Source of the DNA: Candidatus Harrisonbacteria bacterium
GTDB taxonomy: Bacteria > Patescibacteriota > Minisyncoccia > UBA6257 > 02-FULL-45-10c
Reading direction: 5' to 3'
NCBI GenBank assembly: GCA_016214655.1
Contig: JACROC010000005.1
Coordinates: forward strand, 3,078-67,077
Length of the DNA stretch: 64,000 nucleotides
Of the stretch, positions 27,036 through 27,303 are shown piece by piece. How positions within the stretch are numbered: the stretch's first letter is position 1; every line of letters starts with the position of its first letter. The notes under the pieces were generated by a model, which saw nothing but the letters and a program-made list of their open reading frames with translations, was not told the origin of the DNA and made no database searches. Both the position numbers and the translations under genes were made by a program.

Positions 27036-27303
27036 GGAGACCAGGATACGAACTAGCGTCAAATTTAGAAGAGAGAATTTGGCCAAGTTCGAGGAACGAC
27101 GAGAAGGCCGTACTGATAAGTACCCCGACGAGGAGTGACGAAGAAATTGGCCAAATTATCTCTTCCCTTCGGGTGAGATCAATTCCAATCCATCTTCTTC
27201 GTTACTCGTCGCTTATGTATCTAAAGATACACTTCGCTCCTCGTGCCTTGAATCTGGACTATAATTGACTCACTAAATTGATGTTAGCTCGTATTCTGGT
27301 CTC
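27036..27303. ncRNA. copy A of the 268-nt highly structured element (candidate novel structured RNA)
   Basis: About 20-bp closing helix (ggagaccaggatacgaactagc / gctcgtattctggtctcc). 17-bp helix agagagaatttggccaa / ttggccaaattatctct. Hairpins gtac-tgataa-gtac and tgtatc-taaa-gataca. A UUCG-type loop sits at cccttcggg. Conserved blocks cttcgttactc and gccttgaatctgga are shared with copy B. The ORF-track ORF 26993..27268 lies inside it and is probably spurious. Confidence 0.5.

Follow-up and report, generated by a model that had tools for sequence, protein, structure and literature searches.

MITEs fold as long RNA stem-loops (PMC3184786). The MITE-like element bcr1 of the Bacillus cereus group (~155 bp) is interspersed and non-coding, varies in position between relatives, is flanked by short direct repeats, is transcribed with its neighbors, and forms a cruciform-like RNA structure that is kept through compensatory changes (PMC3184786). 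The repeats described here resemble bcr1 in these respects, provided that they are likewise co-transcribed, as their positions suggest, and that the TA at their junctions represents a direct repeat. There is no sequence similarity between the two, and bcr1 has a 5-bp duplication and is limited to one species group, whereas the present elements are ~269 nt long, form a four-way junction, occur in CPR bacteria, and have a core that recurs in elements of three other phyla. ERIC/IRU and the Correia elements of Neisseria (palindromic MITEs with TA duplication) offer further parallels: imperfect full-length palindromes, placement in intergenic regions and within operons, TA at the junction, and long RNA hairpins upon co-transcription. 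Some of these properties are described in PMC3184786. In ERIC/IRU and Correia elements, the terminal repeats are conserved and the host range is narrow, whereas the ends of the present family vary among subfamilies and an internal loop is conserved. Processing by RNase III or RNase E as well as promoter activity are known for Correia and ERIC elements. MITEs derived from IS630/Tc1-mariner elements share the junction TA, terminal inverted repeats, absence of coding capacity, and a size below 400 bp, but no IS630-family parent or transposase was found here. Finally, HEARO/omega-RNA, OLE, ROOL, and raiA are alike in size range, multiple covarying helices, and sporadic distribution. Unlike these RNAs, the present elements have no Rfam match and no associated protein gene (IscB/TnpB in the case of HEARO), and their presence or absence at orthologous sites together with flanking duplications points to insertion as DNA. 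Our literature search found no paper linking MITEs with CPR bacteria.

The window, i.e. the whole stretch of 64,000 nucleotides of Harrisonbacteria DNA that was analyzed, contains two such elements. Judged by the outermost paired bases, copy A extends from 27036 to 27304 (269 nt, plus strand) and copy B from 19306 to 19575 (270 nt, plus strand). A structured two-copy element had been claimed at these places in an earlier note made from the sequence, and its bounds are only slightly shifted here. Both copies folded far better than 200 dinucleotide shuffles of each, none of which was as good: the minimum free energy was -117.8 kcal/mol for A (shuffle mean -66, z = -10.7) and -104.7 kcal/mol for B (shuffle mean -54, z = -11.1). 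A local BLAST comparison of A with B gave a weak match alone, and a global alignment gave 55% identity with a score of z = 11.2 against dinucleotide shuffles. The two are therefore homologues, as had been proposed: A belongs to an A-like subfamily and B to a diverged subfamily of one family. We consider them, at a probability of roughly two in three, to be diverged subfamilies of a small, non-coding, non-autonomous element of the MITE type. A third copy was not found in the window, either by an inverted-repeat scan or by nhmmer.

Two other repeat features of the window were recorded separately. A second, unrelated family consists of a pair of inverted repeats at 33774-33924 and 62822-62968, with arms of ~25 nt (CATACCCGGTGCTACAACTTTGAC / GTCAAAGTTGTAGCACCGGGTATG) that lie ~100 nt apart and enclose unrelated inner sequence. 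In both, an arm runs into an ATG, that of a PMT-like gene near 33921 (plus strand) and that of an rpsL-like gene from 62825 (minus strand); the pair may represent a further small MITE or a leader hairpin common to both genes. In the intergenic segment 37662-37737, short repeats, some inverted and some in tandem, are clustered (TAGCGTTTAG / CTAAACGCTGTACGCTGTA).

Helices P1, P2, P3, and P4 plus two hairpins are common to A and B, and every helix named in the earlier note was present, namely P1, P2, P3, and the GTAC..GTAC and TGTATC..GATACA hairpins. Copy A lies in the divergent spacer between a TrmB gene and a kinase gene, 19 nt before the kinase ATG. Its terminal helix P1 (~27-29 bp in A and B) is formed by the arms 27036-27062 and 27278-27304, and 17 of 27 P1 pairs have changed on both sides across copies. 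In P2, the strand S1 (27069-27090) pairs with S2 (27143-27164). The interior (27091-27142) consists of two purine-rich strands, X1 and X2, flanking the hairpin GTAC-TGATAA-GTAC. The P3 mini-hairpin CCC-UUC-GGG (CCCTTCGGG, 27165-27173) has an invariant stem and a variable loop. It is followed by the P4 domain (27174-27272), which is the conserved core module. This domain is closed by the stem S3:S4, a helix of 27174-27197 with 27250-27272 that we add to those described before, and contains the loop strand Y1 (UCUUCUUCGUUAC, 27193-27206), the hairpin TGTATC-TAAA-GATACA, and the loop strand Y2 (GCCUUGAAUCUGG, within 27238-27257). All of these features are given for the plus strand. Copy B is situated between a VirD4-like gene (19564-21930) and an amidohydrolase gene (17817-19304), both on the minus strand and thus opposite to the element. 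Its P1 arms are 19306-19334 and 19547-19575; the P2 domain (19340-19436) comprises S1 (19340-19362), the hairpin GTGGG-GTTA-CCCAC, and S2 (19415-19436); P3 is CCC-GUC-GGG (19437-19445); and the P4 domain with the core module (19446-19541) carries Y1 CUCCUUCGUUAC, the hairpin TGTGGT-AAAA-ACCACA, and Y2 GCCUUGGAUUUGG. We read the P2 domain as a probable inverted, degenerate duplicate of the P4 module. Compared by eye, the P2 interior of A (27091-27142) appears to be a degenerate core module in reverse complement, and the CPR form may have originated by inverted duplication of this ~100-nt module.

The structure of the element is under selection. RNAalifold was run on seven type I sequences (A, B, and close relatives), which are not independent of one another, and returned P1, P2, the hairpin in P2, P4, and the hairpin in P4, in this order, with the 3-bp helix P3 between P2 and P4. 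In the four-way structure including P3, 95.6% of the cells of the seven sequences were paired, compared with 32-44% in slid controls, and 39 pairs showed changes on both sides, a value matched by none of 500 shuffles. On the plus (module) strand, G-U outnumbered A-C cells by 19:7. The claim that helices had been conserved through compensatory change is supported by these figures, although quasipalindrome-templated mutation could yield some compensatory changes without selection. The conserved blocks described as unpaired, however, turned out not to be simply so. The purine-rich strands in the interior of P2 are complementary to the conserved pyrimidine-rich strands of P4, so that a full-length hairpin (rod) is also possible. 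The proposed pairing of ACGAGGAG with CTCCTCGT fell outside the nested consensus and belongs to this alternative rod, which competes with P2 and P4. The rod is also 93.2% paired, but its long-range helices contribute little covariation. In B, S1:S2 (13 bp) and S3:S4 (12 bp) pair perfectly, and the rod partners are not complementary there.

A palindrome of this kind might act at the level of DNA, as a single-stranded hairpin or cruciform that serves as substrate for a structure-specific recombinase or an HUH-type enzyme (IS200/IS605 or IS91-like transposase, Rep, or relaxase) reading its shape and a short core. Conservation of the structure rather than of the end sequence would fit such a role, as would the near-perfect palindrome of B, which is self-complementary at 68% over its full length, and the TTAC- and CTTG-type motifs in the core, sequences of the kind cut by HUH enzymes. 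B also adjoins a VirD4-like coupling ATPase, but the same gene stands in the same order in relatives without the element, and no HUH or recombinase gene was found near any copy. IS200/IS605-type transposition makes no target duplication, and the 4-bp repeats of the type III elements and the TA of type I (see below) would not be expected from it. In addition, a G-U pair is conserved at two P1 columns (in three and in five of the seven copies, with A-U or U-A in some others), which fits RNA better than DNA. We regard the DNA hairpin as very unlikely.

Comparison with relatives showed that both copies are insertions, since the orthologous spacers are short and intact there. In three relatives (L040, L043, and L045; proteins 60-65% identical), the order of the genes for PMT_2, a 130-aa protein, the VirD4-like protein (776-778 aa), amidohydrolase, FtsW, MurG, GltX, and M23 is kept, and the VirD4-like and amidohydrolase genes either are separated by 9 nt or have 4 nt (ATGA) in common. 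The gap of 260 nt between the two genes in the window is exactly B. The element supplies the stop codon of the VirD4-like gene, three codons inside, and directly abuts the ATG of the amidohydrolase gene, the A of which stems from the flanking TA. The VirD4-like/DUF8128 reading frame runs for 10 extra codons (ETAQPLISDV; 19564-19596, minus strand) beyond the conserved ...YGLARG (...YGLxRG). At the site of A, the TrmB/kinase spacer measures 123-130 nt in five CPR contigs (L046-L050). It measures 401 nt in the window and 132 nt after subtraction of A. The divergent TrmB gene and a GFO-type oxidoreductase gene downstream of the kinase gene are common to the window and L046, L048, L049, and L050; L047 ends just past the kinase gene, so that the TrmB neighbor alone is visible. 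The alignment placed A in the 5' leader, a few bases past the probable -10 element. An nhmmer search of L040-L050 (~150 kb) did not reveal any copy. A composite transposon bounded by A and B was rejected because the intervening genes are syntenic in relatives lacking the elements.

Two further observations were made on the TrmB cluster. The spacers of L046-L050 and of the window (26966-26987) contain a conserved palindrome-like motif, TTGTTGTC-N5-7-TTAGACAA, which is probably the TrmB operator of a cluster consisting of TrmB, P-loop kinase, GFO oxidoreductase, and a ~770-aa protein. A large serine recombinase (L049, 3770-5086; Resolvase, Recombinase, and Zn_ribbon_recom domains) lies beside TrmB in L049 and is absent from the otherwise identical L050; it constitutes a distinct mobile insertion next to this TrmB cluster.

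The empty sites bear on the idea that A and B are paralogues of a resident, trans-acting sRNA family, 6S-like, Y-like, or of another housekeeping or regulatory kind. The strong fold with covariation and the existence of two diverged paralogues would agree with it, and some bacteria have two 6S paralogues. Against it, both loci are empty in relatives, the contexts of other copies are unrelated, no 6S, SRP, tmRNA, or RNase P match and no tRNA-like match was obtained at the elements, and the family is rare. The resident RNA gene implied by the earlier note was thus not borne out, as a consistent promoter or terminator was likewise not found, and its own remark against a housekeeping RNA was supported. 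A resident sRNA gene is already disfavored, and we hold it to be highly improbable.

Relatives were gathered with the pattern CTTCGTTAC N28-52 GCCTTGRATYTGG, two blocks common to A and B, which retrieved 14 genomic and 25 metagenomic loci. When 185,579 species representatives were scanned, the exact core was seen in no more than 2 CPR genomes. Full-length relatives of A came from a Saccharibacteria MAG (L006, identical to L038, and L012) and from Harrisonbacteria RIFCSPHIGHO2_02_FULL_40_20 (L011, identical to L016), with L028, L034, and the partial L030 in addition. These A-like copies are 80-93% identical among Harrisonbacteria, Saccharibacteria, and other metagenomic contigs, and their neighbors differ (murD/ftsW, downstream of folD, or beside a TsaD-like gene); FtsW of the window and of L012 share 43% identity. 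At least two copies each are carried by the window (A and B), the CAYHON01 genome (L006 and L012), and the L028 and L020 contigs. The second copy on the L028 contig (266 nt) is diverged, has a 24-nt terminal repeat of its own, and is situated 370 nt from the first. Between these two related elements of the same orientation, a ~95-aa ORF (MALKSKIALLKCRIEKL...) is found at 5447-5770, an arrangement resembling a small composite unit.

Type I elements, as we call this group, are 263-271 nt long and constant in architecture despite 55% identity. They occur in both orientations without bias, B being antisense to its operon. The ends of the subfamilies are GGAGACCAGGATACGAACTAGC, GGCGATGTCTAAACTAATATT, TGTAACCTAAAATAAAATATC, and, in type III (see below), TGACGGCTTCGTAAAAAGTC, and the terminal helices differ among subfamilies (A, B, and the second L028 copy) as well as among the types introduced below. 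TA was seen at 11 of 15 type I junctions (background 0.068, P about 1e-10), but A is without a 3' TA and the TA may extend P1. Gene families consistently next to other copies, for which the earlier note had suggested looking, were not found among the loci: no protein family recurred and the flanking genes are functionally unrelated. The earlier note had also considered that the copies might be remnants of a known mobile element accompanied by a transposase; neither a transposase nor a known IS was detected in the window or the loci. A parent IS with matching ends was not found in the loci or in plasmid and phage collections. An origin from phages or plasmids was rejected, as types I, II, and III gave no blastn match and no viral contig matched.

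Candidates from known classes were tried in turn. At the gathering threshold, Rfam 15 yielded only tRNAs elsewhere for the window and 14 loci and nothing at the elements, and permissive scans (E up to 10) of the window, the 14 loci, and three short loci produced nothing relevant above noise; the statement that the element matches no recognized ncRNA thus held. Accordingly, 6S, SRP, and RNase P were rejected. Ends resembling tmRNA or tRNA (GGGGAGC...GCTCCCC-ACCA) were confined to L011; CCA is missing from the other copies, and so long a terminal helix does not fit either. A protein-coding reading was rejected as each frame has stops in some type I copy. Neither the 85-aa ORF spanning B (19314-19571, minus strand) nor a 91-aa ORF in A has relatives in Pfam or in the databases, and we judge the former to be a chance ORF outside the function of the element. 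A small ORF in the 3' half of two type II copies was likewise dismissed by eye, its frame being lost in other types. Promoter and terminator scans of the copies stayed at background level with nothing consistent. A riboswitch or cis-regulatory leader was rejected because the downstream genes are functionally unrelated (BrkB, MutL, a response regulator, TsaD, ADP-ribosylglycohydrolase, RNase D, an ABC transporter, radical SAM, and FabF). Retron or DRT ncRNAs were set aside for want of a reverse transcriptase near A or B and of a recurring protein family at the loci, and IS110 bridge RNA and omega-RNA for want of a nearby recombinase, TnpB, or IscB. An IS200/IS605-type PATE or a REPIN is contradicted by the flanking duplications of type III and by the absence of a Y1 transposase or RAYT nearby, and an integron attC site, compared by eye, by misfits in size and core sites. 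Literature searches with sequence strings returned only unrelated primer matches.

The core module consists of a covarying stem around the internal loop CUUCGUUAC / GCCUUGRAUYUGG, is ~100 nt long, and carries a variable capping hairpin. It is shared by elements of CPR bacteria, Desulfobacterales, Bacteroidia, and a gammaproteobacterium, and is present once per element outside CPR. Type II (Desulfobacterales, ~260 nt) has the same P1/P2/P3/P4 layout with an AT-rich insert in P2; type III (Desulfobacterales) is ~155-165 nt long; type IV is from Bacteroidia; and type V is a single gammaproteobacterial element. CPR and Desulfobacterales forms have the invariant CCC-NNN-GGG hairpin in common. Conservation of the core across phyla is partly a matter of ascertainment, as the search pattern used to collect the set itself fixes the core; shared bases beyond the pattern are CCAUCU before Y1 and YGY before Y2. 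The closing stem of P4 was 77% paired across types (25-37% in slid controls); double-change cells numbered 45, compared with 15.5 in shuffles. A second type II copy carries the core variants CCTCGTTAC and GGACCTGG, and the exact pattern therefore under-samples the family.

Type III elements have a 20-nt terminal inverted repeat (TGACGGCTTCGTAAAAAGTC) and 4-bp flanking direct repeats (ACAT, ATGA, AGGA, and AGAT; two more match in three of four positions). In L027, the duplicated ATGA includes the start codon of tsaD. Three-nucleotide repeats flank two of six type II copies and are partial in three more. A single IS family cannot cover the whole set because duplications of 3 and 4 bp are seen in the Desulfobacterales relatives, together with TG...CA ends that are more like those of the IS3 family. 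In a further observation on type III (L003, L008, L026, L027, and L035), the 5' repeat pairs with an internal GCTTTTTACTTTGCCGTC or a terminal GACTTTTTACGARNCCGTCA; L024 has the internal 3' segment only, as if there were two alternative right ends.

A different explanation, on which these relatives bear, is a structured RNA that is mobile and has the conserved core as its functional payload, either a catalytic motif or a module that binds a protein or ligand. DNA insertion would then be its route of spreading, and selection would see an RNA rather than a DNA repeat. The core sequence is conserved across four phyla inside covarying stems, the P1/P2/P3/P4 layout with its invariant mini-hairpin recurs in Desulfobacterales, the excess of G-U over A-C lies on the module strand, and the single-module types stand in sense orientation in 10 of the 11 cases in which both neighbors are co-directional. 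Type I does not share this bias, however, and B is antisense to its operon. The element has neither its own promoter or terminator nor, even at permissive thresholds, a match in Rfam, and the conservation of the core is partly ascertainment. In types II-V the antisense strand is more stable by 1-11 kcal/mol, so that energy does not single out the sense strand; with A favoring the plus strand by 13 kcal/mol and B being equal, strand assignment by folding energy was rejected. On balance, a mobile structured RNA appears unlikely. A related proposition, that the core, set beside the invariant CCC-NNN-GGG hairpin at a perfect four-way junction, is a functional RNA module moving between phyla on different mobile carriers with different ends and 2-, 3-, or 4-bp duplications, is doubtful but is kept open because of the varying ends around a conserved loop, the unequal duplications, and the persistence of length and architecture at 55% identity. 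If it were true, the fold or ligand binding would benefit the element or the host message, and the core could keep flanking translation coupled, recruit a conserved RNA-binding factor, or process itself.

The preferred reading as a MITE-like repeat is deduced from the empty sites, the dispersal, the several copies per genome, the terminal inverted repeats, the flanking duplications, and the absence of coding capacity. A and B have the traits expected: a size of 269-270 nt without a transposase gene, inverted arms of 27-29 nt, presence/absence polymorphism at orthologous sites, and dispersed copies. The assertion that a MITE would not look like this could not be upheld in view of the empty sites, the TA flanks, the terminal inverted repeats and 4-bp duplications of type III, and the precedent of bcr1. 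Several features sit uneasily with the MITE-like repeat. Ordinary MITEs are most strongly conserved at their ends; here the terminal helices vary among subfamilies and types and the interior is conserved. Neither a transposase nor a parent IS turned up in the window, loci, or plasmid and phage collections. Apparent duplications of 2, 3, or 4 bp depend on the type, which disfavors a single transposition machinery, and the TA/TA of type I, missing at the 3' side of A, could be two further base pairs of P1. The constant length and architecture at 55% identity also exceed what neutral decay of a MITE would leave.

For the MITE-like repeat, the following course of events is proposed. A transposase acting in trans would insert the element into short, AT-rich intergenic spacers, usually beside TA. 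Having no promoter or terminator of its own, it would be transcribed as part of the host message, as the positions of A in the 5' leader of the kinase operon and of B between formerly overlapping or adjacent genes suggest. The single strand may then fold into the P1-closed four-way junction or, alternatively, into the full-length hairpin. P1 would rejoin the flanks, and a compact genome could thereby tolerate an insertion that separates coupled genes or parts a start codon from its promoter. This looping out, which would keep coupled genes or a leader and its start codon close, is a suggestion drawn from the positions of the surviving copies. The fold is under selection in the lineages in which the element propagates, presumably for this reason, and this selection explains the compensatory changes and the constant length.

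Genomes of CPR/Patescibacteria are very compact, and we found no description of MITE-like repeats in them. The copies studied here indicate that small mobile repeats can settle between overlapping genes and in a promoter/leader region of 130 nt, possibly because, in the transcript, the insert is looped out by its terminal helix. The conservation of the interior across four phyla, but not of the ends, is unusual. In covariation screens, such elements may pass for new ncRNA genes, and they give rise to spurious ORFs, e.g. the 85-aa ORF in B. If the core is a functional RNA, the family would illustrate how mobile DNA can spread a module of structured RNA.
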